Positions 10,699-33,700 of a stretch of DNA of 64,000 nucleotides are shown here, piece after piece. A program made the position numbers and the translations under genes. Every line of letters begins with the position of its first letter. Position 1 is the first letter of the stretch. This stretch comes from Promethearchaeia archaeon (GTDB taxonomy: Archaea > Asgardarchaeota > Lokiarchaeia > Sigyniarchaeales > SOKP01), in contig JAHQWL010000088.1 in NCBI GenBank assembly GCA_029856155.1, positions 1 to 64,000 on the forward strand. Direction: 5' to 3'. The notes beneath the pieces are model-generated. The model did not search any database, had not been told where the DNA came from, and saw only the letters and a program-made list of their open reading frames with translations.

Positions 10699-10980
10699 TT
10701 GATTATAATCCCAAAATTGTTGGAAAACGAAAAAAAGAGATTCTCACTATTTCTTAATAAAAATCGGTGCGGAGGATGTCAAATGTGCATTTCTTTATGC
10801 CCAACTGGTATTTTAGAGCTCAGTAATGAATTGAATATGCGTATTGCTTATATTCCTAGAGTAAAGGAAGGAAAAGCAAACTATTGTACAGCTTGTAGAA
10901 GATGTGAATTTGGTTGTCCTGATTGGTGTATTTATATTCTAGATAAGGAAGAAAAAAAGAGTGAAAAAGCTAAAACATAA
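10699..10980 (+). CDS. korD: 2x[4Fe-4S] ferredoxin, delta subunit of 2-oxoacid:ferredoxin oxidoreductase
   Basis: CGGCQMCISLCP and CTACRRCEFGCP; first gene of the operon. Confidence 0.8.
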   Translation: MIIIPKLLENEKKRFSLFLNKNRCGGCQMCISLCPTGILELSNELNMRIAYIPRVKEGKANYCTACRRCEFGCPDWCIYILDKEEKKSEKAKT

Positions 10981-10997
10981 TAGGGAGAGAGAAAAAA

Positions 10998-13087: not shown

Positions 13088-13089
13088 AT

Positions 13090-13689
13090 ATGAGTAGATA
13101 TGAAGTTAGAATTGTAGGATTTGGGGGTCAAGGAGTAATAACACTCTCAAAAATGATAATTACCGCCAGTTCGTTATATGAAAACCTAACAGCAACTCAA
13201 ACTGAAGCTTATAGTTCATCTGCGCGCGGAGGAAAATGCTGGGCAGAAATAGTCATAGATTTAGACAGAAATATTAAATTAATAGATTATCCAAAGGCAA
13301 TGAAACCTTATGATTTTCTTATCATCCTTTCAGAAGAAGCTGCTAATGAAGTAAAACCCGATCATCTTAAAAAGAATGGACATTCTGGATTTTTAATTTG
13401 GGATACCTCAACTATACAAAGATTTCGAACTTTAAGAGGAATTGATAAAGTTATTGGAATGCCTATTCAGAAAATGGCAGTAGAGAAATTTGGAAATATG
13501 GTTTATGGAAATTCAATATTATTTGGAGCATTTACTATTCTTTCAGGCATTTTTTCTGAAGAATCTGCTATTGAAACCATCAAAAAATTTGTACCCTATT
13601 CTACTCTTGAAAACAATTTAGAAGCATATGAATTAGGAAAACAAGAAGCAAAAGAATTCCTCACGCAATTAAAGGAGGAGAAACACTAG
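13090..13689 (+). CDS. korC: 2-oxoacid:ferredoxin oxidoreductase gamma subunit
   Basis: GFGGQGV, YSSSARGG, NSILFGA. Confidence 0.85.
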   Translation: MSRYEVRIVGFGGQGVITLSKMIITASSLYENLTATQTEAYSSSARGGKCWAEIVIDLDRNIKLIDYPKAMKPYDFLIILSEEAANEVKPDHLKKNGHSGFLIWDTSTIQRFRTLRGIDKVIGMPIQKMAVEKFGNMVYGNSILFGAFTILSGIFSEESAIETIKKFVPYSTLENNLEAYELGKQEAKEFLTQLKEEKH

Positions 13690-13691
13690 TT

Positions 13692-15509
13692 ATGTATATT
13701 AATAAAATACAAAAAGGTTGGAAAGAATTAGAATCTGAAGTAATTACTTCTGGAAAATGTGTTTTTTGTGGTGCTTGTGGAGCCTTCTGCGATAATATTA
13801 AATTTGACATGATCAAAGAAGTCCCGAAAGAAGACGGGTCATGTAAAGATGCTAATACTTGTAGAGATGGATTCGGAATATGCTATAATTTGTGCCCTAA
13901 AACTGAGATTGATCAATATCCCCTTTCTTTATTGGACAAGTGGGTGTTTGAGAAAAAGCATGATAAAATTCTGGGTCATTATATCGATATTCTGTCTGTT
14001 AAGTTAACAGATAAAGCTCAAGAAAAGATTCCTCTTGGAGTAGGGCCCTTAACTGGTTTATTATGGGTTGCAATGGAAAACGAATTAATAGATGCCGTAC
14101 TCATAACTGATAAAGATGAAAATTATAACCCTATTCCCAAAATAGCAAATTCTTCAAATGAATTGTTCAAGGGAATTGGGTATAAACCATCTCAAGTACC
14201 TATTCTATCGTTAGTGGGGGAAGCAATTAATCAAGAATATACGGATATTGCAGTTGTAGGAACATCTTGTCAAATACAAGCATTGAGAAAGTTACAAAAT
14301 CACCCAGGTTTTGATTTTGAAGCTTATGATTTGGTAAGTTTAGCAATAGGAACCTTTTGCACAGGAACCTTCTACAATCAAATTCTTGAAGAAATCTATA
14401 AGGAATATGATATTAATAGGAAGGAAATTCTTAATATTAGAACTGATAGAGATCATTTCAATCTTATAATAAAATCAGATTCAAAAGTAACTAAAATTCC
14501 ATTAAATTACCTCTATGATAGAGCTATTAGAAAAGCTTGCTTTTCATGTTCAGATTATACGGCATCGTTTGCAGATATTTCAGTAGGAGAATTTGGGAGT
14601 GAATCTGGCTGGAATACTATTATTATTCGAACAATAAGAGGTAAAGAAGTATTAGATTTAGCTTTAGAACAAGGAATTGTTAAAGCAAAACCTCTTGATA
14701 AAGATAATGAAGAAATAATCTTGGATTTAACAAGAAATAAAACTGACATTGTGAATATTGAATCTATTATCGATCATTCTCCCGATATTAAAAGTTTTAT
14801 AATTAGGAATCAGAGAATTGCGAGAGTTTATCGTCCAGGAATGTTTGTAATCCTATGGATTCCAGATTATGATTTTTTACCAATGTCAATTTCTAAAATT
14901 GATGGAAATCTTATTGAAATTACAGTTCAAAAAGTAGGCGAAGGTACATCAAAATTATTCGAAATGAATGAAGGAGATATTATCGGTATTAGGGGACCAT
15001 TTGGAAGTTCATTTAATTACGAGGATGCTAATAATATTTTGATTGTAGGAGGAGGTATGGGAATTGCAGCTCTTACAACCTTAATAGAGCCATTAAAAAA
15101 TAATAAGAAAAACGTTTTCATCAATATTGGGGCAAAAGATAAAGCATCATTAATATTTGAAGAGCGGTTGAGCGCTTTAATCCCAAACACTATGTGTACC
15201 ACGGAAGATGGGTCTTATGGAAAAAAGTGTCTGGTAACTGATACAATAGAACAAATTATTAATGAAGAAAATATTGACCTTATTATAACCTGTGGTCCTG
15301 AAATGATGATGAAACGAGTTCTAGAAATAGCTAATTCAAAAAGAATTGAACTCCAAGCAAGCTTAGAACGAAAAATGAAATGTGGAATAGGATTATGTGG
15401 TTCATGTTCTATTGGCAGTAATAATGACATTACAGTTTGTAAAGATGGTCCAGTATTTACTTCCATGCAATTAAAGGACTTTCCTCAATTTGGAACCTAT
15501 AAAAAATAA
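13692..15509 (+). CDS. Fusion of FrhB-like F420 dehydrogenase beta subunit and PyrK/NfnA-like FAD/NAD(P)/[2Fe-2S] electron-transfer subunit
   Basis: N-half: CVFCGACGAFC, CYNLCP, VVGTSCQ, IGTFC, CFSCSDYTASFADISVG. C-half from about aa 355: PGMFV, GIRGPFG, VGGGMGIA, CGPEMMM, MKCGIGLCGSC, VCKDGPVF. Confidence 0.85.
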   Translation: MYINKIQKGWKELESEVITSGKCVFCGACGAFCDNIKFDMIKEVPKEDGSCKDANTCRDGFGICYNLCPKTEIDQYPLSLLDKWVFEKKHDKILGHYIDILSVKLTDKAQEKIPLGVGPLTGLLWVAMENELIDAVLITDKDENYNPIPKIANSSNELFKGIGYKPSQVPILSLVGEAINQEYTDIAVVGTSCQIQALRKLQNHPGFDFEAYDLVSLAIGTFCTGTFYNQILEEIYKEYDINRKEILNIRTDRDHFNLIIKSDSKVTKIPLNYLYDRAIRKACFSCSDYTASFADISVGEFGSESGWNTIIIRTIRGKEVLDLALEQGIVKAKPLDKDNEEIILDLTRNKTDIVNIESIIDHSPDIKSFIIRNQRIARVYRPGMFVILWIPDYDFLPMSISKIDGNLIEITVQKVGEGTSKLFEMNEGDIIGIRGPFGSSFNYEDANNILIVGGGMGIAALTTLIEPLKNNKKNVFINIGAKDKASLIFEERLSALIPNTMCTTEDGSYGKKCLVTDTIEQIINEENIDLIITCGPEMMMKRVLEIANSKRIELQASLERKMKCGIGLCGSCSIGSNNDITVCKDGPVFTSMQLKDFPQFGTYKK

Positions 15510-17575: not shown

Positions 17576-18502
17576 ATGAATGAGCAGTATCGTGACCGAA
17601 TTTTTAATAATAAAATCGATGAAGATCAATTACCCCAATCAAGATGTTGTGATATTCCTATTATTGAATCTCGAGATGGCAATAAAGTATGTTTAAACTG
17701 TGGTGTGATCTTTGAACGAACGTTTGTTGGAAATGAAAGAAGAGCCTATACAATAGAGGAAATTCAGAATCGCCGTAGAACAGAACCTCGATGGCGAGAT
17801 TTTGGACCACGTACTATGTTGCCAAATACAAAAACAGACAGTAAAGGTAAATCTATTGGTGCTAAGGAGCAAGCTCTCTTCTCTCGACTCTCAAAAATTC
17901 AAAATTCATTAATCTCTAGCATTGAGAGGAATTTTTGGGAAGCAAAACCGAAATTAAAAATGTTGACTTCTAAACTTAATATACCAGAGTACATCTCCGA
18001 AACAGCGTGGAAAATATACAGTATTGTAGCAAAAAAGAAATTAACTATGGGTAGATCAATAAATGGGTTTATTTCAGGTTCCTTATATGCTGCTATACGT
18101 GTTCATGATTTTCCACGATTATTAGATGAGATATGCGAAGCATCATTAACACCAAGGCGAACAGTTCATAGGAGTTTAGCTATGATTATTCGTGAAGTAT
18201 TACCGGATCTTAATTTAAGGTATCAGCCTATTACTGCTGAAAGTTTGGTATTTCGATTTGGTAATGAGTTAGATCTACCAATAAAAATACAAAAAAATGC
18301 AATTAATATGTTAAAAGATGCTTCAAAAAATGGACTTAAAAGAACGGGAAAAGACCCAAAAGGATTAGCTGCGGCATGCATTTACATTGCTGCAAAAAAC
18401 GGATGTATTCGCAAGACTCAATCGAAGGTCGCTGACGTAGCTAAGATTACAGAGGTAACTTTGCGGAGTCGTGCCAAACAGATTAAAAGTAAGCTACTTT
18501 AA
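17576..18502 (+). CDS. tfb: Transcription initiation factor IIB
   Basis: Zn ribbon (CCD...CLNCG), ERN, two cyclin repeats, GKDPKGLAAACIY, TQSKVADVAKITEVTLRSR. Confidence 0.92.
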   Translation: MNEQYRDRIFNNKIDEDQLPQSRCCDIPIIESRDGNKVCLNCGVIFERTFVGNERRAYTIEEIQNRRRTEPRWRDFGPRTMLPNTKTDSKGKSIGAKEQALFSRLSKIQNSLISSIERNFWEAKPKLKMLTSKLNIPEYISETAWKIYSIVAKKKLTMGRSINGFISGSLYAAIRVHDFPRLLDEICEASLTPRRTVHRSLAMIIREVLPDLNLRYQPITAESLVFRFGNELDLPIKIQKNAINMLKDASKNGLKRTGKDPKGLAAACIYIAAKNGCIRKTQSKVADVAKITEVTLRSRAKQIKSKLL

Positions 18503-18621
18503 GAAGGTTCTATATCTTTAAGTAATTAAATCAATTATTCTTTATTTTTCTTTATTATCTCGTTTAAAAGAAATTAAAAACAAATTCTATTACTTTATTT
18601 CTTATTATTTCGAATAAAAAA

Positions 18622-19179
18622 TTAAGATTTTTTAGATTGTTCTTGTTGGAGAGTGTATTTTATTCCAACAGCAGTAATAGTTAATCCAATAAGTAAATAG
18701 TAAGTATTTACCGTCATAAAGGAAACCCAGTATATTGCTGGTAAAATTGAAGTAATATCCATATTATAAAGGGCAGTTTGAAAATGGATAGTAGTAAAGG
18801 GTGTTGTAATAGCAGTTTTACCTAATAATACTAAATAATTCATTTTAATAAAAGCTCCCATTAAGACCACCATACCAATAACAACGATGAACTTTGCTAA
18901 TGGAATGCTTTCGATGTCATCTTTTAACGATCTTTTAAACATAAAAATTCCTACGATTAAATAACAACACATAGAAGTAACTAGAAATAACCACAATACT
19001 GTTCCAGTAAGCGGGAAGATTGTAGATGAATATATAAATTCCGAAAGTAAAAGTGAATTTCCATCAAGAATAAACGGTGTAAAATTTAACAAAATGATAA
19101 AAGCAATCTCGAGTAATGAAAGAATAATAAATATAGATCCGATGATTCGAAGAAATTTTAGAACTTTTTTATATTCCAT
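18622..19179 (-). CDS. Hypothetical four-TM membrane protein
   Basis: Four hydrophobic segments. Confidence 0.65.
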   Translation of the reverse strand: MEYKKVLKFLRIIGSIFIILSLLEIAFIILLNFTPFILDGNSLLLSEFIYSSTIFPLTGTVLWLFLVTSMCCYLIVGIFMFKRSLKDDIESIPLAKFIVVIGMVVLMGAFIKMNYLVLLGKTAITTPFTTIHFQTALYNMDITSILPAIYWVSFMTVNTYYLLIGLTITAVGIKYTLQQEQSKKS

Positions 19180-19331
19180 TTTAACTCACCTTAATTTTTT
19201 TAAAAATCCAAGAAAATTTTTTATGCAATTATACTTATTATTGTTTTTGAAATTATTAAAAATTTTTAATATTATTGTTTTTTACATAAATTCTATTCAA
19301 TAGTAATTAAATATATCAAATTGATTTTTGA

Positions 19332-20297
19332 TTGAAAAAAAAGAAGAATCACGCACCGGAAATTTTTACTTGTTCGCATAAAAATGTCAAACAAGACAGT
19401 GGGTTCATAGTTTGTCAAGATTGTGGATTAATTATGGAAGATAATTTAGCTTTTGAATCCACAGCATCAACTAGCGACTTTTATACAGATTCGCAGAGAG
19501 ACTATGAAAGAAGAATTAATATAAGTAATTCGAAGGCGCTTCAAGATCCCATAATAAAAGAGAAATACGACCGAATTAAAACACTTGAAAAATGGTTCCG
19601 AGACTATAAATCTGATTTTACTGAACAAAAAAAGACTATTGAATTATTAAAAAGCCATAGCATAGGATTAAACATTAATAATGTAAAATACAAAGAAATT
19701 AAGGATAGGTATTTGAAATATAACAAATACCATCACCATAATTATCAAAATATGGTTATTATTTTTCTCGCAATTGTATGGTTAGAAATAAAAGATATCA
19801 CAAATATACGAATCGAAGAATTTATTAAAGTTTCTAGAGAATTAGGGCATAAAATCAATAAAAAGATGGTCAATAACGCCATGCTAAAAGTTAAAAGAAC
19901 AGAAAAGATATTTAAAGATAAAAAAAGTGCTTTAGATCTAGAAAATGAGATCAAAAATAAAATAAAAATTGTTTTTCAAAAAGATCTAAACAATATTTCA
20001 TTCAAGGAAGTTCAAGAGTTTTTTAGTGATAAAATTGAATATGAAAAAACTAAAATTGAAATGCTATTATTAGCTGATAAAGTATTAAATATAATCTCAT
20101 ATAATCAAATTCAAAATTTAAACTATAAAGCATTTACAGCGGGATTGATTTATTATGTAGGACAAACACTTGACAATCGAAAAATATTTACTCAAAGCCT
20201 TATAGAAAGGACCAGCAAATTTTCAAGTACTACTATTAGAAAGAAGTATCATGTCTTAAAAGATCTTTTAGGAGATCCCCAAAATCTGGAATTGTGA
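19332..20297 (+). CDS. Divergent TFIIB-like protein (Zn ribbon + cyclin-fold/HTH)
   Basis: CSH...VCQDCGLIM Zn ribbon. C-terminal 'AFTAGLIYY...FTQSLI...SSTTIRKKY' matches the TFB second repeat and HTH. Confidence 0.7.
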   Translation: MKKKKNHAPEIFTCSHKNVKQDSGFIVCQDCGLIMEDNLAFESTASTSDFYTDSQRDYERRINISNSKALQDPIIKEKYDRIKTLEKWFRDYKSDFTEQKKTIELLKSHSIGLNINNVKYKEIKDRYLKYNKYHHHNYQNMVIIFLAIVWLEIKDITNIRIEEFIKVSRELGHKINKKMVNNAMLKVKRTEKIFKDKKSALDLENEIKNKIKIVFQKDLNNISFKEVQEFFSDKIEYEKTKIEMLLLADKVLNIISYNQIQNLNYKAFTAGLIYYVGQTLDNRKIFTQSLIERTSKFSSTTIRKKYHVLKDLLGDPQNLEL

Positions 20298-20389
20298 TTT
20301 AAAAAGTATTTCTTTAGTCAAAATCATTAATATACTTCAAAACCTTATTAAATAATATTTAAATTACACTTACAGTTTTAATAATTAAA

Positions 20390-23260
20390 ATGTCATCATC
20401 AGAAAAACCTAATGAAATCATTTATTACAGTCAATCCATTGAAGATCTAATCAAAGCTTTCAATACTGATATAGATCATGGATTGAAATCATCAGAATTA
20501 AATGAAAGATATTTAAAATCTGGATATAATGAATTACCAAAAATAAAAAAATCAATTTGGAAGATTTATCTTGCCCCAATTTTCAATTTTTTGATTGTGA
20601 TTCTTCTTATAACAGGCATAGTGATTGTAATTTTAGGTTCTGCTGAAGAGACCGTTATTACATTTACAGTTGTAATTTTAAATTCTGCAACTGTAGTAAT
20701 TCAACAATATAGAGCACAGAAGGCTTTAGAATCTCTACGGCAAATTTCTGCGTTAAAAGCTACAGTAATTAGAGATGGGAATCAATTCGAAGTACCGAAT
20801 AGAGAATTAGTACCTGGAGATGTTGTGATTTTGGAACAAGGAGATAAAATACCCGCTGATGGGAGAATCATAAATTACGTAAATCTTACGATTGATGAAG
20901 CTCCTCTAACTGGTGAAAGTGAACCAGTAGAAAAAACTAATAGCATTATCAAAGAAAATGATGTTTCAATACAAAAGCAAACTAATATGGTATTTATGGG
21001 AACATATATTTATACTGGAAGGGCAAAAGCATTGATTACAGGAACTGGTATTAATACTGAGATTGGGAAGATATCTGAAACCCTTAATGAAATGGGGAGT
21101 ATTGAAGATATCCCACTAACAAGAAAATTAAATAGATTAGGGTATATTTTAGGGACAATCGTGGTAATAAATTTAATCGTATTAATCATTTATAAATTTT
21201 CTTTATTGTTAATTCAAGGAAATTTCATTCAATCAGAAATAAGTAGCGCTCTTGTTAGTTCTATATTAAGAGCTATTAATATCTTACCCATCAATCTTCC
21301 CATTTTGTCAACACTAGTATTAATTACAGGTGTACTAAATATGGCTCAAAGTGGCGTAATAATCAAAAATCTTTCTTCGATAGAATCACTCGGTCGGGTT
21401 TCTGTAATTTGTTCAGATAAAACTGGTACAATTACTAAAAATGAAATGACGGTTGAAAAATTTTGGATTAACGAGGAAGAATTTGACGTTACAGGTTCTG
21501 GTTATGATTCTGAAGGAGGAATATTTAAAAATAGTACTCCCATAAGCTTGAAAGATAATCCGACTTTTATTAAATTTATAGATTCAATGGTTTTAAATAA
21601 TAATGCTCAACTAGTATATGAAGATGTTAAAATCAGATTAAAAGAAAAAAGAGAAATGGCAGTAAGACGAGCCCTAGGTTCTCCAACTGAAGCTGCTTTA
21701 TTAGTGCTAGTTGAAAAAGCTGGACATATCCCTTACGATATTAAAAAGAAATATGAATTCATTAATGAATTTTCTTTTACTTCTGAATTAAAAAGAATGA
21801 GCTCAATATATAAAATTAATAATAATGAAAATGAAATATTTGTATTTACTAAAGGAGCTCCTGAAAGAATTATCGAGATTTCTTCTAGTATTGATATAAA
21901 TGGAAATATAAAACCTTTAGATTCTAACTTTAGAAAAGAAATACTGAATAAAATAGAAGATCGTGCAAATGAAGGATATAGAACTCTCGCTTTATCTTAT
22001 AAAATGTTTGCTAATGTTAACGATCCTAAAAGAGAAGAAGTAGAAAAAGAATTAATTTTATTAGGATTTGTTTCAATTATGGACCCTCCAAGAAAAGGTG
22101 TTAAAGAGTCTATTGAACAATGCCAAAATGGGGACATAAAAGTTATAATGATTACTGGTGATCACCCCGCAACAGCTAAAACAATTGCTTCACAAATGGG
22201 AATTCACAAAGAAGGAGATTTAGTTATCGAAGGTTCTCAGTTAAAAAGTTCTGAAAATATTGATTTTGAAAAAATTTCTGTTTTTGCTCGTGTAGAGCCT
22301 TCAGATAAAGAAATAATTGTTAAACGTTACCAAGATAATGATAAAGTAGTTGCTATGACGGGAGATGGAATTAATGATTCACTAGCATTAAAGCTCGCTA
22401 ATGCGGGTATAGCTATGGGTATTACAGGAACAGATGTTGCAAAAGAAACTGCGGATATGGTTATCTCAGATGATAATTTTACTTCTATTGAAAAAGGTGT
22501 TAGAATCGGCCGTGGTTTATTTTCGAAAATTAGGACTATAATCTATTTTTTTATTTGTTTGAATATAATGGAAGCAATCATCTTTTTTACTTATGAATTT
22601 ATACCCACATTTGATCTCTTTAGTTCAGAATGGCAACATATCTACATTTTTGGTATTGTACACTCCCTTCCTTCATTGGCATTAGTGATCGATACACATC
22701 CTAAGGATATTATGCTTGAACCACCTAGAGATGAAGAACAGATATTGAATAAAAATATGTGGATAATGTTATTAACACAAGCTTTTCTTATGGGTTTGGG
22801 ATTAGTTCTAATTCTGCAATTGACGTTATGGCACGTCATTCCGTTGAATAATTGGAACTTAAATCCATATTTTAGCTATTTTAATCCTGCCTCTAAATTT
22901 TCTGAATTGGTGGCTCAAAAAGCAAGAACTATGTTTATTACTACCATATTTATTCTCGAAACAAATTTCATATGGACATTTAGAAGACCAAATAAATCTC
23001 TCAATAGAAGTATAAAAGAAGAATTTAGTCTCTCTTTATTAGTTATATGTTTGTTTACGTTAGCATTGCATATTCTTTTTATTTGTTTTTCATACCTTGT
23101 TAATTACTATGTAAATGATGTTTTCGGGTTAGATTTACAGATAAATTTCATGTTTCTAAGCGGAACAGATTGGATACTCTGTATTTTATTTGCTTTACCA
23201 GGTATATTTGGCATTGAAGTATTTAAATATTTTGCTCGAGAAAAAAACATTCATTTTTAA
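20390..23260 (+). CDS. P-type ATPase, P2A-like scaffold with non-canonical transport site
   Basis: LTGES, CSDKTGT, KGAPE, DPPR, TGDH, MTGDGIND; M4 reads PINLP. Confidence 0.92.
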   Translation: MSSSEKPNEIIYYSQSIEDLIKAFNTDIDHGLKSSELNERYLKSGYNELPKIKKSIWKIYLAPIFNFLIVILLITGIVIVILGSAEETVITFTVVILNSATVVIQQYRAQKALESLRQISALKATVIRDGNQFEVPNRELVPGDVVILEQGDKIPADGRIINYVNLTIDEAPLTGESEPVEKTNSIIKENDVSIQKQTNMVFMGTYIYTGRAKALITGTGINTEIGKISETLNEMGSIEDIPLTRKLNRLGYILGTIVVINLIVLIIYKFSLLLIQGNFIQSEISSALVSSILRAINILPINLPILSTLVLITGVLNMAQSGVIIKNLSSIESLGRVSVICSDKTGTITKNEMTVEKFWINEEEFDVTGSGYDSEGGIFKNSTPISLKDNPTFIKFIDSMVLNNNAQLVYEDVKIRLKEKREMAVRRALGSPTEAALLVLVEKAGHIPYDIKKKYEFINEFSFTSELKRMSSIYKINNNENEIFVFTKGAPERIIEISSSIDINGNIKPLDSNFRKEILNKIEDRANEGYRTLALSYKMFANVNDPKREEVEKELILLGFVSIMDPPRKGVKESIEQCQNGDIKVIMITGDHPATAKTIASQMGIHKEGDLVIEGSQLKSSENIDFEKISVFARVEPSDKEIIVKRYQDNDKVVAMTGDGINDSLALKLANAGIAMGITGTDVAKETADMVISDDNFTSIEKGVRIGRGLFSKIRTIIYFFICLNIMEAIIFFTYEFIPTFDLFSSEWQHIYIFGIVHSLPSLALVIDTHPKDIMLEPPRDEEQILNKNMWIMLLTQAFLMGLGLVLILQLTLWHVIPLNNWNLNPYFSYFNPASKFSELVAQKARTMFITTIFILETNFIWTFRRPNKSLNRSIKEEFSLSLLVICLFTLALHILFICFSYLVNYYVNDVFGLDLQINFMFLSGTDWILCILFALPGIFGIEVFKYFAREKNIHF

Positions 23261-23404
23261 TATTGTTTTTATTCTTAAAAATTACTATTGAATACATTCT
23301 AGCAAAAAAGCAATAAATTAAAAGTTATGAATATCATAGGTTATTTATTATATTGAATAGAAATTTGAATTCAATTATTTGTTAAAAACTGTGGAAGAAC
23401 CACA

Positions 23405-26317
23405 ATGGAATCTACAGAAGAAAATTTTTATAATCTTGAATTAGGCGAAATCTACAAAAAATTTCAAACCGATCCTAAGAATGGTTTATCTGTAAAAGAA
23501 GCTGTCAAACGATTAGAAAAATATGGTTTAAATGAAATTCCCAAAGTCTCTAAGGGTTTCATTAAAATATACCTTGCTCCATTATTTAACTGGTTAATCG
23601 TTATTTACCTAATAGGGGCTGTAATACTAATTTTAGCATGGGCTTTTGGTGGAGAGGGAGATTTAATAACTGTTGCATTGACTTTATTTATCGTTCTTTT
23701 AAACTGTGTAGTCGCAATTATACAGCAATACAGAGCAACAAAAAAACTTAAAGCTTTACGAGAATTAACCGCTCCTACATCCACTATAATTAGGGATGGG
23801 CAAAAACAAGAGGTTCTGACCAAAGAAATTGTTGTGGGTGATCTGTTAGTAATAAGTCAAGGGGATAAGATTCCTGCAGATGCGAGGATTATTGAATCCT
23901 TTAATCTTGTGGTAAATGAAGCTTCTTTAACAGGAGAAAGCGAACCTGTAAGAAAAACGGAATTAGGAGAAGCAATAAAAAAAAGAGATATTTCTATAGG
24001 AGAACGTAGTAATATGGTATTTTATGGAACATTTATTTCTACAGGAACAGGTAAATCCGTCATAGTTGAAACTGGGGGAAATACTGAAATAGGGAAGATT
24101 TCTCATGGTCTAGAAGAAGCTGGTACAAGCGAGATTCCAATTCGCCAAAAAATGAATAATTTTGGTAAATGGTTAGGGATTATTGTTTTCGTTTTTTGGT
24201 TAATAACATTAATAATTATCTGGGCTGCAAGGGGGTCTCCTGAAATTGTGGAAAGTTTAAATTCTGCTCTCGATCTTATGCCAATCAATATACCATTATT
24301 GGTTACTATTATCTTAATAACTGGAGTACTTGCTATGGCTCATCGTGGCGTAATTATAAGAAATCTTGCTTCCGTTGATAGTTTAGGACGTGTAAGTGTT
24401 GTATGTTCTGATAAAACAGGTACACTAACTAAGAACCAAATGTCAGTTCAACATGTTTGGACAAACGGATCAATATTTCGAGTAACAGGTAGTGGATATA
24501 GCCCTGAGGGAGATATTATTCTCATGGATGACCCTAAGAATCATATTTATGTTAAACATATTAATGAATACCCATATCTTAAATTACTTTTGACTTGTGG
24601 TTTCCTAAACAATAATTCTGCTTTAGTGAAAAATGAAATTGAAATATCTGGAAAAACCCTCTATAATTGGAATGTGATTGGCTCTCCTACTGAGGGAGCA
24701 CTGATGGTTTTATTTCAGAAGGGTATGGGTGATTATCTTCTTGAGGATTATGAATCTATTACAGAATATCCGTTTGATTCATCTTTAAAACGAATGACTA
24801 AACTTTATAAAAGAGATAAAGTATATGTTTCCTTTACAAAGGGCGCAAGTGAAATTTTAATGCCCTTATGTTCAAAAGTAATATATAATGATAGTAAAAT
24901 TGAATTTACTGATGAGATAAAGAAGAAGATTATGGAAATTGTAAATTTATATGCAAATCAAGGTTATAGAATTTTAAGTTTATGCTATAAAGAAATGAAT
25001 GAGATCCCTCCAGAAGGAATTGAAGGTAGAGAAATAAGTGAAACAGATTTAACATTTATTGGGTTTGTTACAATATTAGATCCTCCAAGAGATGGTGTAA
25101 GAGAATCTATAGAACAATGTCATGAAGCGGGTGTTGATGTGATAATGATCACAGGAGACTCTCCAGCTACTGCGAGAGCGATTGCTTCACAGATCTCTAT
25201 TGTAACTAAAGAAAGTGATATTGTTGTAGAAGGGAGAGAAGTTAAAAATATCGAATCCTATGAAGAATTTTCTAAAATTAAGGTGTTTGCTCGAGTATCT
25301 CCAGAACATAAAGAAGATATAGTTGAGAAATATCAGGAACAAAAAAAAGTTGTTGCTATGACAGGTGATGGTGTGAACGATGCTTTAGCTTTAAATATGG
25401 CTGATGCAGGAGTAGCTATGGGAATTGCCGGCACTGATGTAGCTAAAGAAGCTTCAGATATGGTGATATCCGATGATTCATTTAACTCAATAGTAACAGG
25501 TATTCAACAAGGAAGGGGGATATTCGCAAGAATCCGAGCTGTAGTATTTTTCTATATTGTTATTAATGTATTTGAAGGTATTGTCCAATTTATATTAGCT
25601 ATTATACTAGATTTGCCTTATTTCTTAGATGAAGCTTTCTATTATCAATGGGTTTTTCTTTCAATAACTTTACATATATTTCCAGGATTAATTCTTACAT
25701 TTGATACTACTTCAAAAGACATAATGAAAGAAAAGCCGCGAGATTCAGAAGAAATCCTTTCAAAAAATACTTTTAATCTATTATTTATATTTGGTATTTT
25801 ACTTGCTATAAGTATGGTGATAGTGTATTTCATAACAATTACAGGCTTATATCCTGTTTTTCCTGAAAATATAGTTCCAGGATATCTATATTTTGATGAA
25901 TCACTATTACCTCCCGAGATATATAATATTCCAGAAGTTGCATTAGCCGACGTTTTAGAAAAAATAAATGTAATCAGAACTATTGGAAAAACCTTAACAA
26001 TGATGATGTGCACTCTATTTTTCTGTGAATCTTTTCTTGTATATCAGATTAGAAGGCCAAATAAATCTTTGATAAAGAGTCTTATTGAAGATCGAAATAA
26101 ATTTATGTTTCTTCTAATTGGACTTTTATTCTTTGTTTTCATTGCTCTAATATATATTCCTGGAGTACAAGTTTTCTTAGCTTCTGCAGGACTCAATTTT
26201 ATGTTCATGTTTCTAACAGGATTAGATTGGCTGGTATGTTTCTTAATCTCTTTAGTCTGCATCGTATCGTTTGAGATTGTAAAGTTTGTGGCGCGTAAAA
26301 AAGATATTACGTTTTAA
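23405..26317 (+). CDS. P-type ATPase, tandem paralog with non-canonical transport site
   Basis: LTGES, CSDKTGT, KGASE, DPPR, TGDS, MTGDGVND; M4 reads PINIP. Confidence 0.92.
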   Translation: MESTEENFYNLELGEIYKKFQTDPKNGLSVKEAVKRLEKYGLNEIPKVSKGFIKIYLAPLFNWLIVIYLIGAVILILAWAFGGEGDLITVALTLFIVLLNCVVAIIQQYRATKKLKALRELTAPTSTIIRDGQKQEVLTKEIVVGDLLVISQGDKIPADARIIESFNLVVNEASLTGESEPVRKTELGEAIKKRDISIGERSNMVFYGTFISTGTGKSVIVETGGNTEIGKISHGLEEAGTSEIPIRQKMNNFGKWLGIIVFVFWLITLIIIWAARGSPEIVESLNSALDLMPINIPLLVTIILITGVLAMAHRGVIIRNLASVDSLGRVSVVCSDKTGTLTKNQMSVQHVWTNGSIFRVTGSGYSPEGDIILMDDPKNHIYVKHINEYPYLKLLLTCGFLNNNSALVKNEIEISGKTLYNWNVIGSPTEGALMVLFQKGMGDYLLEDYESITEYPFDSSLKRMTKLYKRDKVYVSFTKGASEILMPLCSKVIYNDSKIEFTDEIKKKIMEIVNLYANQGYRILSLCYKEMNEIPPEGIEGREISETDLTFIGFVTILDPPRDGVRESIEQCHEAGVDVIMITGDSPATARAIASQISIVTKESDIVVEGREVKNIESYEEFSKIKVFARVSPEHKEDIVEKYQEQKKVVAMTGDGVNDALALNMADAGVAMGIAGTDVAKEASDMVISDDSFNSIVTGIQQGRGIFARIRAVVFFYIVINVFEGIVQFILAIILDLPYFLDEAFYYQWVFLSITLHIFPGLILTFDTTSKDIMKEKPRDSEEILSKNTFNLLFIFGILLAISMVIVYFITITGLYPVFPENIVPGYLYFDESLLPPEIYNIPEVALADVLEKINVIRTIGKTLTMMMCTLFFCESFLVYQIRRPNKSLIKSLIEDRNKFMFLLIGLLFFVFIALIYIPGVQVFLASAGLNFMFMFLTGLDWLVCFLISLVCIVSFEIVKFVARKKDITF

Positions 26318-26396
26318 AATCATCTTTTTTCTTTTATTTTTCTTAAATTTGATAATAAAGGATACTTTTTTATTATAAACTTGATTTTTTTCTTTT

Positions 26397-26942
26397 ATGT
26401 TAAGAGGGAAAAGAATCAAATTAGGTCCTATTAAAAGAGAATATATTGATTCATTTCTAAAATGGTTTAATGATCCCGAAATTACTCAATATCTTATAAT
26501 CTATCGTCCAATGACTAGGATGGCTGAAGAAGAATGGATGGAAACATTAAAAGAACGTGAGGATACTATTCATTTTTCTATTGTTATTCCAAATGAAGAT
26601 GGATCAGAGATTCTTATAGGTAATTGTGGAATTCATAAAATAGATTGGAAAAATCGAGTAGGAGAACTTGGAATAGTAATTGGAGAAAAAGAGTATCAAA
26701 ATGAAGGATTTGGTACTGAAGCAATAGAAATATTATTAGAATATAGCTTTAACACGGTGAACCTAAACAGAATCGAATTGCTTGTCTATGATTACAATGT
26801 TAGAGCCATGAAAGCATATAAAAAAGTAGGATTTATTGAAGAAGGGCGAAAGCGGCAATTTATGTGGTATAAGGGAGCTTATCATGATGCGATAATGATG
26901 GGAATATTAGCTGAAGAATGGGTAAAGAAAAATAAAAAATAA
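26397..26942 (+). CDS. GNAT N-acetyltransferase (RimJ/RimL/SpeG-like)
   Basis: ELGIVIGEKEYQNEGFGTEA, LNRIEL, N.RA..AY.KVGF..EG..R. Confidence 0.9.
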   Translation: MLRGKRIKLGPIKREYIDSFLKWFNDPEITQYLIIYRPMTRMAEEEWMETLKEREDTIHFSIVIPNEDGSEILIGNCGIHKIDWKNRVGELGIVIGEKEYQNEGFGTEAIEILLEYSFNTVNLNRIELLVYDYNVRAMKAYKKVGFIEEGRKRQFMWYKGAYHDAIMMGILAEEWVKKNKK

Positions 26943-26943
26943 T

Positions 26944-27999
26944 TTATTCTAATTCCTTAAAGTATGGGATTATCTTATCTCGAAATATTTCATAGACTTT
27001 ATTTGTATCGGGACCTCTATTCATTAAACTCATATGTGTTGCTCCGGCTTGTTTATATTTTTCTATACTTGAAATGACATCATCGATTGTGCCTAAACAA
27101 TTAGTATCTTGCAGAATTGTTTCAGGCAATTTATCCAGATTCTCTAAGTAATCCATTGAATTCATACTATTCATTTCAAAATCATGAACATTAAAATCTT
27201 CTGGTAAATCTAAGTTAGGATATGCTTCGTTCGTAATGAAGGAATTTAATAGATAGGAAGATTTAAAGAATTCACATCTTTTTATAGCATTCTCGGGATC
27301 CTCATTATCAATGGCTACAAAGCAATCATAAACATAATCAATCTCAGTAGGATCTCTGCCAGCTGCTTTTGCTGCATCAAAAACCTCTTTTTGTTTCTCC
27401 TTATAGAGCCATGGCGGTTGATAAAGTGGATACCACCCATCTGCTAATTCTCCAGTTATTTGACGAGTTTTTGGTCCATTGCCAGCAATATAAATTGGTG
27501 GACTTTTCTGAATTGGTTTTATTTGAATATAGGCTTTTTTTATTTCTCCCCAGAATTCACTGTTTCTATTAACTTTTTTCTTGGTCCAAAATTCCCTCAA
27601 TAAGATAATATACTCTCGTAATTTTGAAACAGATTTGTTTCTATCTAAACCATACATGTCAATATTCATTGCCTCTCCTGCTCCAAGCCCAATCATACCT
27701 CTCCCATTAGAGATCTGGTCTAATGTAGCTACTTTATGAGCCATTAATGCTGGATGAAAGCGATGACAATCAGAGACACCAGTGCATAATTTAATTTTTT
27801 TTGTTATCATCGCTAAGGATGTTAAAAAGCAATAGGCATCATAGCATGTTCCTGGACCTGGAGGTAACATTATTGTATGATCTGCATAAAAAACACCAAA
27901 AAACCCACACTCTTCAGCCTTTTTTGTTCCTTCGAACATATATTCAAGACGAGGCGTTGGTACAGGGATATGGAAACTAAACTTCATTATTCTAATCAT
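26944..27999 (-). CDS. LLM-class (luciferase-like) oxidoreductase, probably F420-dependent
   Basis: ADH, HPALMAHKVATLDQISNGR, GLGAGE, PPIYIAGNGP, ADGW. Confidence 0.85.
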   Translation of the reverse strand: MIRIMKFSFHIPVPTPRLEYMFEGTKKAEECGFFGVFYADHTIMLPPGPGTCYDAYCFLTSLAMITKKIKLCTGVSDCHRFHPALMAHKVATLDQISNGRGMIGLGAGEAMNIDMYGLDRNKSVSKLREYIILLREFWTKKKVNRNSEFWGEIKKAYIQIKPIQKSPPIYIAGNGPKTRQITGELADGWYPLYQPPWLYKEKQKEVFDAAKAAGRDPTEIDYVYDCFVAIDNEDPENAIKRCEFFKSSYLLNSFITNEAYPNLDLPEDFNVHDFEMNSMNSMDYLENLDKLPETILQDTNCLGTIDDVISSIEKYKQAGATHMSLMNRGPDTNKVYEIFRDKIIPYFKELE

Positions 28000-28150
28000 A
28001 CTCCTCTAGTATTGTTTAATCTTTTTTTGAACATTATTTATCAAAATTTGTATTTTTATTCAAATCTTTTGATAAATTTTAAAATCCAAGAGATTTATAA
28101 AATTTTTAGAATTTCTTTAACATAATAAGAAAATATATAGAAGTGATAAA

Positions 28151-29272
28151 ATGGATATTGATATAAAATTCGGGACAGAGGGTACATTTATCCCTCCTTT
28201 TGATAGGGGTATTGAAACCATAAAGAGAATCGAGAATAGTGGTTATGATTCAGTATGGTTTGCAGATCATTTAATGGGGTGGATTCCAGAATCAATTTGG
28301 ACTCCAGACCTTATTGAAATGTCAACAATTCAGAATAGTCCACATGATTTTTACGATGTTTTTTCTGTAATGTCAGTGGCAGCTTGGAACACTAAAAATG
28401 TTAAATTGGGTACGAGTGTTACAGAGACTTTTAGGAGACATCCAGCTGTGCTAGCCCAAACCTTTTTAACGTTGGATCATATATCAAAAGGGCGATCAAT
28501 TCTCGGCATCGGTACCGGTGAAGGGGAAAATATCATTCCATATGGTATAAAATGGGAGAAACCTGTTAGCAGATTGGAAGAGGCAATAAAAATAATAAAA
28601 CTCCTTTGGGAAAATGAAGGAAAAGTCAGTTTTGATGGGAACTTTTGGAAATTAAAAAATGCTGTCCTTTCTATAAAACCCTATGAAGAAAAAAAATATC
28701 CTCCGATATGGATCGCAGCACATGGCCCTAAAATGTGTGAATTGACGGGGAGATTAGGAGATGGTTGGATACCGTCCAACTTTAATCCTAAAACATATAA
28801 AGAAAAGCTTGATATTATTCAAAATTCAGCAAAAAAAGCAGGACGTAGTCCAGAAGATATTACACCCGGTTTATGGTGCAATTTAATTATTGATGAAGAT
28901 CATAATGAATGTGATAAACTATTAGAATCCGCTTATGTAAAAAACTATAGTTTAATTCAATCAAATGAATATTTTGAAAAATTTGGTATTTCACATCCAT
29001 TCGGCAAAGATTTTTACGGCCTTCTTGACTATATCCCTACAAACTATGACCGAGAAACTATGCTTGAAGCTTTTAGTAAGATACCAGCAAAATTGTGCGA
29101 TGAAAGTTTTTTACATGGCACACCAGATGAGATTATATCTAAAATTGAAGACTATGCCAAAGCTGGTTTGAAACATATTGTTCTTTATAATATTACCTAT
29201 AATTGCGATATTACTAAAATAAAAAGTTCATTTGGATGTGTAAAGAAAATATTACAATATTTCAAGGGTTAA
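28151..29272 (+). CDS. LLM-class oxidoreductase, probably F420-dependent
   Basis: DSVWFADHLMGW, RRHPAVLAQ, GIGTGEGEN, PPIWIAAHGP, GDGW. Confidence 0.88.
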   Translation: MDIDIKFGTEGTFIPPFDRGIETIKRIENSGYDSVWFADHLMGWIPESIWTPDLIEMSTIQNSPHDFYDVFSVMSVAAWNTKNVKLGTSVTETFRRHPAVLAQTFLTLDHISKGRSILGIGTGEGENIIPYGIKWEKPVSRLEEAIKIIKLLWENEGKVSFDGNFWKLKNAVLSIKPYEEKKYPPIWIAAHGPKMCELTGRLGDGWIPSNFNPKTYKEKLDIIQNSAKKAGRSPEDITPGLWCNLIIDEDHNECDKLLESAYVKNYSLIQSNEYFEKFGISHPFGKDFYGLLDYIPTNYDRETMLEAFSKIPAKLCDESFLHGTPDEIISKIEDYAKAGLKHIVLYNITYNCDITKIKSSFGCVKKILQYFKG

Positions 29273-29348
29273 ACTCTATGAAAAACTTTTTTCCAAATTA
29301 AATAATGTTTTTCCTATTGTTTTATTTATAATTTATAAGTGAGCAATT

Positions 29349-30482
29349 ATGGATATTTCAGAAATAAAAATAGGAACTGAAAGTAGCATTTTTGGACCAG
29401 TTGATAAGGGAATTACTCAAATAAAAAGGTTAGAGGAAATTGGTTTTGATTCTGTTTGGATGGCAGATCATTTAATGGGTTGGACCCCTGAATCAATATG
29501 GACTCCGGATCTTATTAAAGTAGCAGCGGTTCAACAAGATCCTCACATTTTTCATGAGGTATATTCTATATTAGCTGTTGTTGCATGGATTACAAATAAA
29601 ATATTGTTGGGAACAAGTGTCACCGAGACATTCCGAAGGCATCCAGCAGTATTGGCACAAACCTTGATAACTCAAGATAATATATCTAAAGGTCGAGTTA
29701 TTTTAGGAATTGGTACTGGAGAAGGAGAAAATATTGTTCCTTATGGGATAAAATGGGATAAGCCCGTAAGTAGGCTAGAAGAATCAATAAATATAATTAA
29801 ACTCCTTTGGGAAAGTGATAAAAAAGTAAATTATAACGGAGAATTTTGGAAGCTTAAGGATGCTGTTCTAACCGCAAAACCATTTAAAAAAAATAAATAT
29901 CCTCCTATTTGGATTGCTGCACATGGACCTAAAATGCTAAATTTAACTGGACGATTGGGTGATGGATGGTTACCCGCATATTCGGACCCTCAAGCTTATA
30001 AATATAGATTAAATCATATTCACAATGCAGCTAAAAAAGCTGGAAGAGATATTGATGAGATTACACCTGGTTTGTATTCATATCTAATTATAGATGAGGA
30101 TCATAACGCATGTGATGATTTAATTGGGAGTCCTTATGTTAAAAACATGTTGTTAACATTTCCGAATTCTGTTTATAAAGAATATGGAACAAAACATCCA
30201 TTAGGCGAAGATTTTTATGGATTAATTGATTACATTCCCACGAAATACGATCGAGAAACAATACTAGAAGCTATTAATAAAATTCCTCAAAAAATGTGTG
30301 ATGATCATATCTTGCACGGGACACCTGATGATATTATTGGAAAAATTGAAGAATATGCAAAGGTTGGAATGAAACATATTGTTCTTACTAACTTAACCTT
30401 TGTAAATGATTTATCGAAAGTTAAAAGCTCATATTATTATATGCAAAAAGTACTAAAATATTTCAAGGATAACAATCCTTAG
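29349..30482 (+). CDS. LLM-class oxidoreductase, close tandem paralog of 28151
   Basis: Long identical motif blocks shared with the 28151 ORF. Confidence 0.88.
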   Translation: MDISEIKIGTESSIFGPVDKGITQIKRLEEIGFDSVWMADHLMGWTPESIWTPDLIKVAAVQQDPHIFHEVYSILAVVAWITNKILLGTSVTETFRRHPAVLAQTLITQDNISKGRVILGIGTGEGENIVPYGIKWDKPVSRLEESINIIKLLWESDKKVNYNGEFWKLKDAVLTAKPFKKNKYPPIWIAAHGPKMLNLTGRLGDGWLPAYSDPQAYKYRLNHIHNAAKKAGRDIDEITPGLYSYLIIDEDHNACDDLIGSPYVKNMLLTFPNSVYKEYGTKHPLGEDFYGLIDYIPTKYDRETILEAINKIPQKMCDDHILHGTPDDIIGKIEEYAKVGMKHIVLTNLTFVNDLSKVKSSYYYMQKVLKYFKDNNP

Positions 30483-30738: not shown

Positions 30739-33700
30739 TTGGAATGTAGAAGAACGATGACTAAAATTAACAATTATAATATAAAGAAAAATAAAATTGT
30801 TTGCATTTTAATTATTTTCCTTACATTACTTATAACTTCTGATGTTAATCGAATAGCTAGAGATAATCTAAATAAAAAAAATGAATCAGATCTCATAACT
30901 ACACCTAATAGTGATTTAGATTTAAAATTAAGTGATGAACCTTTAAATGAATATTCTGGAATAGGAAAAGCTCAAAATATTTCTGAAAGTGGGAATGGGA
31001 ATTTTCAAAATTACAATTTGGATATAACAAATAACGATAATGCTTCGATACAAGTTCCAAATTATTGGAAAGCTAATGAAATCATATGTAATATATCCAA
31101 TATTTATGAATATGATAAATATTGGATAAATGATACATTTGATTCGGGATATGATTCAGATTTTTGGAAAGGTTACACTAACTCTGAATATGTTTCTTTT
31201 GGTTGGCATGAGGCCTCAACTGGAACAAATGATTCAATATATATGAAATTTAGTGAATCTGGTGCTTCATGGGTTAATGTAATTGCTAATTGGAATTGTA
31301 CACTTCCAGTCCCAAAAGAACACATACCATTTGATAATTGGGAAATAATATATAAATACCGTGTAATATATACCGATTATACTTGGCTACCTGGTGGAGG
31401 TGCTTATAATAGTTTAACTATTGATGTTGATGGTAGATCTCAGGAATTTACTCAACAAAAGCTTGATACTTTAGATAATGATACCTGGTATACTGGAAAT
31501 GTTCCTTTGATTCAACCAGAGATATATAATTGGGCCCTTCCTGGCAATATATCATTAATATTTGAAATAGGTTATAAAAATTCTTTCATTAATCCAACGG
31601 GTTATTTAAAAGTATTTTATGATAATATTACTCTGAAATTATCGACAATCCCAAAACCCTCTCAAATAAATCTTACTATCAATGATTTGACTAATGGGTA
31701 TAATGCAAGTGTTAATGATCTTATTGAATTTGGTAAAGGGACAGTAAATTTAAAAAATACTTGGAATGGAGATGAAGGGGGAAAATACCATTATTTTTCG
31801 TTTTCCCATAATTCTACTGGTAATTTAGTTATCTATACAGATTTTTATGCAGAAGCTACATCCTCTCGAAAAACAAACTCGCTATTGTTGATCGAGGGGA
31901 GTGAATTTATGGCTGAAAATAATTCTAAGACACAATGGACAATGTTTTTTACAGTAACTCAACCTGGTTCTTATTCTAATGATTATTATTTCAATATTTC
32001 TAAACCATTAAATTGGAATATTACTGAGGTAATTGATCCTTATTTAAATAATAAAATAAATGATACAATAGGGGCAGGGTATGGTAATACAACTTTTACA
32101 ATTCCTAATAACATAATAACTAATGGTTTATGGAAATTTGTAGCGGAGGCTCCAAATTATATAAAAGAAGCAAATTTTTATAAATGGAGTGGTGTTGATT
32201 GGATTAAAAACTCTACTTTCCATCATGGAGAAAAATTAAAGATTAATGCTTCAATTAATACTGAATTAATTCCAATTACAGAATTAACAAATGGATCTTT
32301 ACAAATTTTTTATCCCAATGGAACCCTATTTTACGCAGAAAATACTTCTGTAAGTAGTGGTGGAAGTCTTGAATTTTCAGAAATTATCATAGGGAGAAAA
32401 AATGCAAGTGCTGGAAAATATTCAGTATGTATTATTTGGAATGATGATGATGTTAACATGACTCAAGTTGGATTCTATAAACTAGAATTTATTGTATACC
32501 ACCATACAAGTTTAACCGCTATTGACTCCTTTTTCGAACAGACTGCTGGAGAACCTCTCCTAATAAAAGTGAGATTTAATGATACTGTTCTTAATAAGGC
32601 AATTGAATTTGCGACAATCACTTATAAATCAACATTTGGTTCATCTGGAACAATGGCTTATATAGGTGCTGGAACATATTTTTCTGAAGTAAACACGGAT
32701 GGTTTGGCACTTGGAGATTATTATTTTTCATTTAATGCCTCAAAACTCTATTATGAGAATCAAACTGCTATAAATTTGATCCAATTAAGAATTATCGCCC
32801 AACCATTAACTTTGGAAGTGCCGAGTACTATTATTAGTGCGATTGCAAATGATTATGCTATTTGTCAGATAAATGTTACCGGGGCGATTTCTGAGGCGTT
32901 TATTACAGATGGTGTTAATATTAGCACGGATTGGGAAAATCCATATTCTATTGAAGATTTTAATAACGGTACATTCGAACTTAACTTTTCTACATATCAT
33001 TTACCCTCTCAAGGTATTATAGAGACTTTCACAGTTACTATTTTTGCTAATAAGACTGATTATGGGAGTACTACTAGCTATATTTCGATACAAGTAACAC
33101 CGTTAGCCACCACAGCATATTTAAACCAAACTGTTGTTAATGTATTATTAAATCAAGGTTTTTATTTAAAAGTAAATTATACTATTGCGGGAACGGGTGA
33201 ATTAATTACCGGAGCAACCTTAAATGTGACATGGGCATCAACTTATACGATTTTTCCTGTTGCTGATGGTTTTATCGTATATTTTTCTACTAGTGGTCTT
33301 TCAATAGATATCTATACAATATTCTTTCAATTAAATCATCCAGAATATCAAACAGCATTCGAAAGCATATTTGTAATTATAGAGGAAAATCCAACTTATA
33401 TCGAAGTATATTTGAATCAACTAGACAGAACAACGGAAAAAACGATAACGATTCAATGGAATGAGGCTTTAAATATTACTATTTTATATAAAGATTCTTT
33501 AACCAATGATTTTATTTCTGGGGCTATAGTATATATGAATGGATCAGGGATTTCAAGAGTCTTAGATGAAAACGGACAACAATATTATACTATTTTAAGC
33601 TCGGGAGTCATGTCTGTTGGAATTCATTTTTTGACGGTTTCAATTGAAAAAGATAATTATATTTTTGTTTCAGAGATTCTTAAAATAGTAGTAGAACAAG

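Follow-up and report, generated by a model that had tools for sequence, protein, structure and literature searches.

The window analysed here is a 64,000-nucleotide stretch of an archaeal genome (Promethearchaeia archaeon; assembly GCA_029856155.1, contig JAHQWL010000088.1, positions 1 to 64,000 of the forward strand), and the subject of this report is a pair of P-type ATPase genes that lie head to tail on its + strand. An earlier reading of this DNA, referred to below as the original prediction, had described the two proteins as active pumps that lack the normal Ca2+ site II and have a flippase-like fourth membrane helix, and had assigned the host to the Asgard archaea. The assignment of the host agrees with public records: close orthologs of the pumps carry Asgard names at NCBI (Hodarchaeota, Thorarchaeota, Lokiarchaeota, Hermodarchaeota, Helarchaeota, Odinarchaeota, and Promethearchaeota).

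The pump genes and their membrane ion site

The two genes and their catalytic motifs, which were located by motif search, are as follows.

20390-23260, + strand: gene 1 (P0001), an uninterrupted open reading frame (ORF) of 956 amino acids encoding a P2-type P-type ATPase of the Asgard PxN/His clade described below
20909-20920, + strand: gene 1 A-domain motif TGES
21416-21430, + strand: gene 1 phosphorylation motif DKTGT
21851-21859, + strand: gene 1 motif KGA
22148-22162, + strand: gene 1 motif MITGD
22361-22378, + strand: gene 1 hinge motif GDGIND
23405-26317, + strand: gene 2 (P0002), an uninterrupted ORF of 970 amino acids encoding a paralog of gene 1 from another subclade of the clade
23930-23941, + strand: gene 2 A-domain motif TGES
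24410-24424, + strand: gene 2 phosphorylation motif DKTGT
25364-25381, + strand: gene 2 hinge motif GDGVND

The proteins encoded by genes 1 and 2 are 43% identical over their full length, and the orthologs of gene 1 are at least 69% identical across Asgard lineages. All P-type ATPase superfamily (HAD-IC) motifs (DKTGT, TGES, KGA, DPPR, MxTGD, and GDGxND) are present in both proteins, which score 288 bits (gene 1) and 283 bits (gene 2) with the superfamily model TIGR01494 (cut-off 62.3). The original prediction had called both pumps catalytically intact, and each motif on which it relied (TGES, DKTGT, KGA, TGD, and GDGxND) was found where it had been placed. The Pfam architecture of the proteins (Cation_ATPase_N, E1-E2_ATPase, Cation_ATPase, Hydrolase, and Cation_ATPase_C) is the usual one for P2 and P3 pumps. 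Judged from these features, both genes are predicted to encode catalytically complete P2-type P-type ATPases with ordinary E1/E2 machinery and a rebuilt membrane ion site.

The residues of that site, in transmembrane helices 4, 5, 6, and 8 (M4, M5, M6, and M8), map to these positions.

21287-21301, + strand: gene 1 M4 motif PINLP, with Ile301 at the position of SERCA E309 and Asn302 (21293-21295) at that of G310
24281-24295, + strand: gene 2 M4 motif PINIP, with Asn295 at 24287-24289
22559-22573, + strand: gene 1 M5 motif LNIME, with Asn725 and Glu728 as the equivalents of N768 and E771 of site I
25562-25576, + strand: gene 2 M5 motif INVFE, found by motif search
22655-22672, + strand: gene 1 M6 motif IVHSLP, with His758 (22661-22663) at the position of SERCA D800
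25667-25684, + strand: gene 2 M6 motif TLHIFP, with His757 at 25673-25675
22958-22960, + strand: gene 1 M8 Glu857, the E908 equivalent
26027-26029, + strand: gene 2 M8 Glu875

In both genes, the position of SERCA E309 is occupied by Ile, that of G310 by Asn, and that of D800 by His; N796 is replaced by Phe (gene 1) or Ser (gene 2), and T799 by Val (gene 1) or Leu (gene 2). The equivalents of N768, E771, and E908 are retained in both. These equivalences were derived from HMMER alignments with LMCA1 and SPCA1, which agree with an independent MAFFT alignment with 109 ordinary P2 pumps and reference P3A, P3B, and P1B pumps; the M8 column was anchored on an LMCA1-like Enterococcus sequence (Arg) and on the canonical pump of the same genome (Glu). 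The two alignments confirm the M4, M6, M5, and M8 assignments of the original prediction and support its statement that the normal Ca2+ site II cannot form, as the equivalents of E309, N796, T799, and D800 are all replaced. An AlphaFold2 model of the gene 1 protein, for which the clade alignment served as input (pLDDT 82, pTM 0.71), has the M4 helix broken at residues 297-302 and the M6 helix broken at residue 758, the points at which canonical pumps unwind to form their ion sites.

An Asgard clade of P2-type pumps

When 1.84 billion cluster representatives were searched, a group of ~32 clusters (at 50% identity) stood sharply apart at the top of the ranking, with scores of at least 520 bits and alignments that extend through the C terminus; the ordinary PEGLP / N..TD pumps come after it. 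The members of this group share a signature of P-(I/V/F/L/W)-N-x-(P/V/I) in M4, N..E in M5, and His in M6. The E309 position is hydrophobic in 32 of 32 clade sequences, as compared with Glu in 107 of 109 ordinary P2 relatives; the G310 position (N302) is Asn in 29 of 32, as compared with Gly in 101 of 109; and the D800 position (H758) is His in 31 of 32, as compared with Asp in 101 of 109. At the N796 position, where 103 of the 109 relatives have Asn, the clade has mostly Tyr, Phe, or an aliphatic residue, and every clade member has hydrophobic residues at its site II positions. The M5 residues are common to both groups, with Glu at the E771 position (E728) in 32 of 32 clade sequences and 103 of 109 relatives, and Asn at the N768 position (N725) in 28 of 32 and 103 of 109, respectively. 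The M8 position of ordinary prokaryotic P2 relatives is often Gln, Arg, or Lys (Gln in 56 and Glu in 46, or 42%, of the 109), whereas the clade has Glu at this E908 position (E857) in 30 of 32 (94%), and this far stronger retention of the M8 Glu argues that site I is in use. The helix cores contain no conserved polar residues other than N302, N725, E728, H758, and E857, which are 88-100% conserved across the ~32 clusters.

PINLP is present in 116 of 121 close orthologs and the M6 His could be read in 119, the motif pattern being unmatched in the remaining two. Other clade-specific switches are found outside the ligand positions: a conserved M1 Gln is replaced by Pro (P63), an M2 Glu by Gln (Q106), and the Pro of GDGxNDxP, which is present in 95% of ordinary relatives, by Leu. 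The M4 variants within the clade are PITIP, PFNFP, PWNFP, and PIMIP. In the PIMIP subclade (L116, 7054-9996, - strand; P0139), the M4 Asn is lost and M6 reads ..VHDIPP, with an Asp gained beside the His, so that PIMIP and His-Asp look like a compensatory pair within the predicted site.

The distribution of the clade was determined in 151 Asgard genomes with a clade profile. Full-length members scored at least 1078 bits and ordinary P2A pumps at most 945 bits, a split that was checked by reading 22 loci above 1078 bits and two at ~900 bits. Clade members are present in 90 of the 151 genomes, in one to five copies each; this corresponds to 52 of 72 high-quality genomes, 36 of 52 genera, and 12 of 27 Asgard GTDB families, and among the genomes searched the clade was not found in the other 15 families. 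A search of 423 genomes from three further archaeal phyla yielded no member (best score 866 bits, with PEGLP or PESLP and N..TD in the top matches), and none was present among 80 loci from other GTDB phyla, all of which read PE(G/A)LP and came from a contig scan that saturated on the universal motifs CSDKTGT and GDGxND; these loci were used as named references only. Every named clade member is from an Asgard archaeon, and the nearest ESM Atlas cluster is mainly Promethearchaeota. Because the same substitution pattern holds across the whole clade, it is far beyond chance. The original prediction had argued for selection from two diverged paralogs, and its case is extended by the conservation of the substitutions across a monophyletic clade in 90 Asgard genomes.

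At least 16 genomes of the host's GTDB family have the same head-to-tail pump pair, and in another family two similar copies form an independent tandem. Within the family of the window, two genomes that are 98-99% complete (G099 and G104) yielded P3A proton pumps well above the cut-off and no clade member; other members of their genus have both.

Two trees were calculated, both without eukaryotic P2, P4, and P5 sequences. One had 109 rows and was obtained by an IQ-TREE quick search under LG+G4, with the two P1B pumps of the same genome as the outgroup and, as references, three P3A and four P3B sequences that pass the NCBIfam cut-offs for their types; the other had 57 rows and used the site-heterogeneous LG+C20+F+G4 model with posterior mean site frequencies (PMSF). 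The clade is monophyletic in both trees, with a Shimodaira-Hasegawa-like approximate likelihood ratio test value of 100, and has a stem length of 0.24 under LG+G4. The grouping of P2 pumps with the clade is supported at 94 (LG+G4) and 96 (LG+C20 PMSF), with P3A, P3B, and P1B outside. Under LG+G4 the sister group of the clade comprises every prokaryotic P2 pump in the sample, a P2 group that is supported at only 81, and under LG+C20 PMSF it lies amid P2A lineages with placement supports of 0-60. The safe statement from these sequences is that a long-stemmed clade lies within the P2 radiation and outside P3A and P3B, with a weakly supported deep placement. The two genes of the window fall in different subclades (P0002 with P0136, and P0001 with P0122-P0124), and their duplication is therefore old.

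Membership in the P2 class is also indicated by the presence of Cation_ATPase_N and Cation_ATPase_C and by the fold. The best PDB sequence matches are LMCA1, SPCA1, and SERCA (434, 378, and 344 bits, respectively), and the top 50 structural neighbours of the AlphaFold2 model are all P2 pumps, the best fold matches having template modelling scores of 0.6-0.8; by sequence or structure, the P2 neighbours comprise LMCA1, SPCA1, SERCA, and the Na,K- and H,K-ATPases. The C-terminal 217 residues alone had no match among PDB sequences at E <= 0.001. Both proteins are nevertheless under every NCBIfam equivalog cut-off. For genes 1 and 2, respectively, the scores were 463 and 435 bits with TIGR01116 (P2A; cut-off 703.4), 451 and 488 bits with TIGR01522 (P2A, PMR1 type; cut-off 798.3), 342 and 350 bits with TIGR01647 (P3A; cut-off 615.5), and 320 and 299 bits with TIGR01524 (P3B, MgtA; cut-off 610.75), and the P1B models gave 162-239 bits. 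P3B pumps differ from the clade in M4, where the references read PEMLP, and form a separate clade in the LG+G4 tree. No description of this P-type clade was found in the literature searched. These results fit the suggestion of the original prediction that the pumps represent a new subclass, and we consider the clade to be an apparently undescribed, monophyletic P2 subfamily that is so far Asgard-only.

Candidate cargo of the pumps

The genome to which the window belongs also encodes a third P2 pump, a canonical P2A protein of 947 amino acids (L003; contig 10, 1005-3848, - strand). Its site reads PEGL in M4 (with Ile instead of the second Pro), STNFDE, NIATDGIP, and an M8 Glu, and on these motifs it is likely the true Ca2+ pump of the organism. 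The same genome has two P1B pumps, and no P3A pump was found in it.

We propose that the products of genes 1 and 2 are small-cation pumps that would carry one cation at a single His/Glu/Glu/Asn/Asn site, and that this cation is not Ca2+ (probability about 0.7). In such a pump, site II would be abolished, with a bulky hydrophobic residue (I/V/F/L/W) in place of the M4 gating Glu, a mostly aromatic or aliphatic residue in place of the M6 Asn, and the M6 Asp gone. Site I would be kept in modified form, consisting of the M5 Asn and Glu, the M8 Glu, the M6 His in place of Asp, and a new Asn in the unwound part of M4. One small cation would be occluded by these five residues and moved by the usual alternating-access cycle. 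A site II that is filled, together with a site I that is under strong constraint and recentred on His, argues for a working single-ion site and against either a decayed site or a lipid groove, and Ca2+ is disfavoured as the ion because the same genome has a canonical PEGL/N..TD pump elsewhere.

A histidine combined with two carboxylates and amides is a ligand set typical for Mn2+, Fe2+, Co2+, Ni2+, or Zn2+, and a divalent transition metal of this kind is therefore ranked first among the candidate ions, as a tentative choice. H+ is ranked second and is a less probable candidate, with the His and Glu residues as a protonatable centre or the His as a built-in counter-ion; the M4 sequence resembles that of P3A pumps, and His and Glu are a natural protonatable pair. 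Na+ or K+ is a doubtful third. A precedent for a His at the transport site comes from a P1B-4 transition-metal pump (sCoaT type), in which it is proposed to act as an internal counter-ion (PMC10654040), although these pumps belong to a different topology class and the likeness is one of analogy only. The direction of transport could also be import, as Palmgren has remarked that loss of the TM6 Asp goes with Ca2+ import in P6 pumps (PMC10654040). The P6 pump CtpE of Mycobacterium, which functions in Ca2+ uptake, is like the clade a prokaryotic P2-like pump that has lost this omnipresent Asp (PMC10654040, PMC5615198); by its published description, on which this comparison depends, CtpE has PEGL in TM4 and Ile in TM6 (PMC10654040), whereas the clade is without PEGL and has His in TM6.

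Several observations weigh against the proposed single-cation pump or against particular ions. Extensions for metal binding are absent from both ends of the proteins, no gene beside the pumps is conserved from one Asgard family to another, and the neighbours that do occur are without a metal or ion theme. The neutral residues in M1 and M2, where acidic or polar ones are replaced (Gln to P63 and Glu to Q106), are a poor fit to a hard divalent cation, and the unusually high conservation of the orthologs (~70% identity across Asgard lineages) counts against the choice of a metal. A simple H+ pump is made less attractive by the genuine P3A pumps that co-occur with the clade in at least 19 sampled genomes. 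This co-occurrence also ruled out phyletic complementarity between the clade and P3A proton pumps. In addition, the P3A signature is absent: P3A pumps of the AHA2/PMA1 type (prokaryotic members L096, L097, L099, and L133-L135) share with the clade a reduced site with few ligands and a hydrophobic residue at the E309 position within P-x-x-x-P (PVAMP or PVALP), but they have an M6 Asp and an M5 Arg (ETxR) where the clade has an M6 His and M5 N..E, and they are separate from it in both trees.

The alternatives to a single-site pump for a cation other than Ca2+ differ in cargo. It is unlikely that these are still pumps of the P2A kind for Ca2+ (or Ca2+ and Mn2+) that use site I in place of site II with an altered stoichiometry or affinity. 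The P2A pumps LMCA1 (9euq and 6zhf), SPCA1 (8iwt and 7yam), and SERCA1a/2b do resemble the clade in Pfam architecture, the TGES motif, 10 helices, unwound M4 and M6, and M5 N..E, to which SERCA adds the M8 Glu; the best hidden Markov model, sequence, and structure matches of both proteins are Ca2+ pumps, and the equivalents of N768, E771, and E908 are retained. Public databases annotate the proteins as Ca2+-transporting ATPases, and Asgard orthologs have been placed in Transporter Classification (TC) entry 3.A.3.2.21 (PMC7997004). These public annotations are automatic, however, and both proteins score below all Ca2+-pump equivalog cut-offs. The four ligand positions E309, N796, T799, and D800 are all replaced, such that M4 changes from PEGLP to P-(I/V/F/L/W)-N-x-P and M6 from N..TD to (aromatic/aliphatic)..x-His, and a canonical Ca2+ pump is encoded elsewhere in the genome. 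Histidine is moreover an unusual Ca2+ ligand. An organic cation as the cargo, for instance a polyamine or a different amine, appears slightly less probable again; by analogy with P5B pumps, the two buried Glu residues and the hydrophobic M4 residue might form a wider pocket. A site II that is hydrophobic or aromatic while two acids are kept, the neutralised acids on the entry side, and the lack of an inorganic-ion gene context would suit such a cargo. The P5 model, in contrast, gives only 246-256 bits (cut-off 618), the fold neighbours are ion pumps, and there is no polyamine-related gene among the annotated neighbours. The P5-type M4 motif has a doubled proline, which PINLP lacks. Least likely of all, and very improbable, is that the proteins have given up transport and work as sensors or scaffolds driven by ATP: a role as scaffold has been considered for some P4 ATPases (PMC10654040), but all catalytic motifs are kept and five mid-membrane polar residues are 88-100% conserved over ~32 clusters.

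The remaining alternative goes back to the original prediction, namely that the clade consists of lipid flippases or is a prokaryotic stage on the way to the eukaryotic P4 ATPases. The Ile at the E309 position is indeed found in P4 flippases such as ATP8A2 and Drs2, in the motif PISL (PMC4937031), but it is not specific to flippases: in P3 ATPases the position is occupied by Ile or Val (PMC4937031), and this part of M4 reads PVAMP, PVAQP, or PVALP in six sequences that exceed the TIGR01647 cut-off, three of which come from Asgard genomes. The clade also keeps the second Pro (P-x-x-x-P) as in P2 and P3 pumps, which PISL is without, and has Asn where P4 has Ser. The idea gains some appeal from the loss of the canonical Ca2+ site II, from the confinement of the clade to the closest archaeal relatives of eukaryotes, and from the open question of how P4 ATPases, which are reported to be eukaryote-only, originated (PMC10654040). 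The remaining evidence opposes it. The A domain has TGES and not the DGET of P4 pumps in both proteins and in nearly all clade members; TIGR01652, the P4 model, gave 111.5 and 117.2 bits (cut-off 431), the lowest scores of all P-type subfamily models and under those for P1B; and no PhoLip_ATPase_N or PhoLip_ATPase_C domain was found in the Pfam scan. The P4 hallmark in M5, a Lys beside the conserved Asn (K873-N874 in ATP8A2; PMC4937031), is absent, the residue before the M5 Asn being Leu, Thr, or Ile in the clade. Two buried Glu residues (E728 and E857) are conserved, all of the 50 closest folds are P2 pumps, and the genomes searched from 15 of the 27 Asgard families gave no clade member. A search of the host genome for CDC50 (PF03381), the beta subunit of P4A pumps, gave no match, and control genomes gave none either. 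An intermediate between P2A and P4 is therefore not supported, we regard a flippase function as highly unlikely, and an attractive candidate for how lipid flippases arose drops out as unsupported. Equally remote is a variant in which the clade lies near the prokaryotic root of P4 and P5 and would handle a cargo bigger than a metal ion (an organic cation or the head group of a lipid, for example) through the hydrophobic M4 gate and a widened, half-hydrophobic pocket; if true, it would make the clade a new Asgard-specific family near the origin of the eukaryotic "large-substrate" pumps (P4/P5).

If the proposed single-site pumps use site I alone, they would mirror LMCA1, SPCA, and PMCA, which are site-II-only pumps, as LMCA1 and SPCA use only site II whereas the clade has site II destroyed and site I kept, and they would provide a natural experiment on how the specificity of a P-type pump changes. 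The clade is a well-delimited Asgard group in which the "omnipresent" TM6 Asp has become His and the TM4 gating Glu a hydrophobic plug while the other Ca2+ site is kept. Since the classification of 1998, P6 is the sole P-type ATPase family to have been added, and a 2023 review expects more from prokaryotes (PMC10654040). The clade also bears on annotation. A census of Asgard transporters counted "orthologs of a putative Ca2+ ATPase, TC 3.A.3.2.21" as support for Ca2+ signalling (PMC7997004); the clade proteins are annotated as Ca2+ pumps, apparently wrongly, and the orthologs counted in that census may belong to the clade or to the canonical pump.

Genomic surroundings

The two pump genes are separated by a spacer.

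23261-23404, strand not assigned: intergenic spacer of 144 base pairs, AT-rich, with T-runs after the first stop codon

Genes 1 and 2 may be transcribed separately. An Rfam scan of 18000-28000 gave no match, and a scan for bacterial promoters and terminators gave matches at the level of chance for AT-rich DNA. A 122-amino-acid ORF on the - strand (25645-26013), enclosed entirely by gene 2, is probably spurious.

In the genomes of one Asgard family, a protein of ~655 amino acids (L114, 4983-6950, - strand; L115, 9825-11810, + strand; also L111-L113) is encoded once or twice next to the pump gene. It weakly matches PF09743, the E3 UFM1 ligase domain of eukaryotes (E 1e-5 to 1e-10). By this match it is possibly a eukaryote-like signature protein, and its link to the pump is synteny in that one family only.

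The annotated neighbours of the pumps are unrelated to them and include TFIIB, EamA, GNAT, luciferase-like, and pantoate transferase genes, Lon-like and M29 peptidases, and others. Upstream of the pumps lies a TFIIB gene with two TFIIB repeats (17576-18502), and between the two is an ORF of 321 amino acids with a TTG start (19332-20297) and a weak match to the TFIIB zinc ribbon (E 5e-4), which may encode a divergent second TFB paralog; a second genome from the genus (L108) shows the same arrangement of TFIIB gene and ORF. Downstream, a GNAT acetyltransferase gene (26397-26942) is directly followed by three adjacent paralogs of a luciferase-like monooxygenase (26944-30482; one on the - strand and two on the + strand). 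Farther along, an ORF of 1380 amino acids with a TTG start (30739-34881, + strand) matched no Pfam family at E <= 0.01. At the other end of this region, a redox cluster that includes a CCG-domain protein (9820-15509) contains the alpha, beta, and gamma subunits of a 2-oxoacid:ferredoxin oxidoreductase (10998-13689) and a 605-amino-acid fusion of FrhB-like, NAD-binding, and DHODB Fe-S domains (13692-15509).

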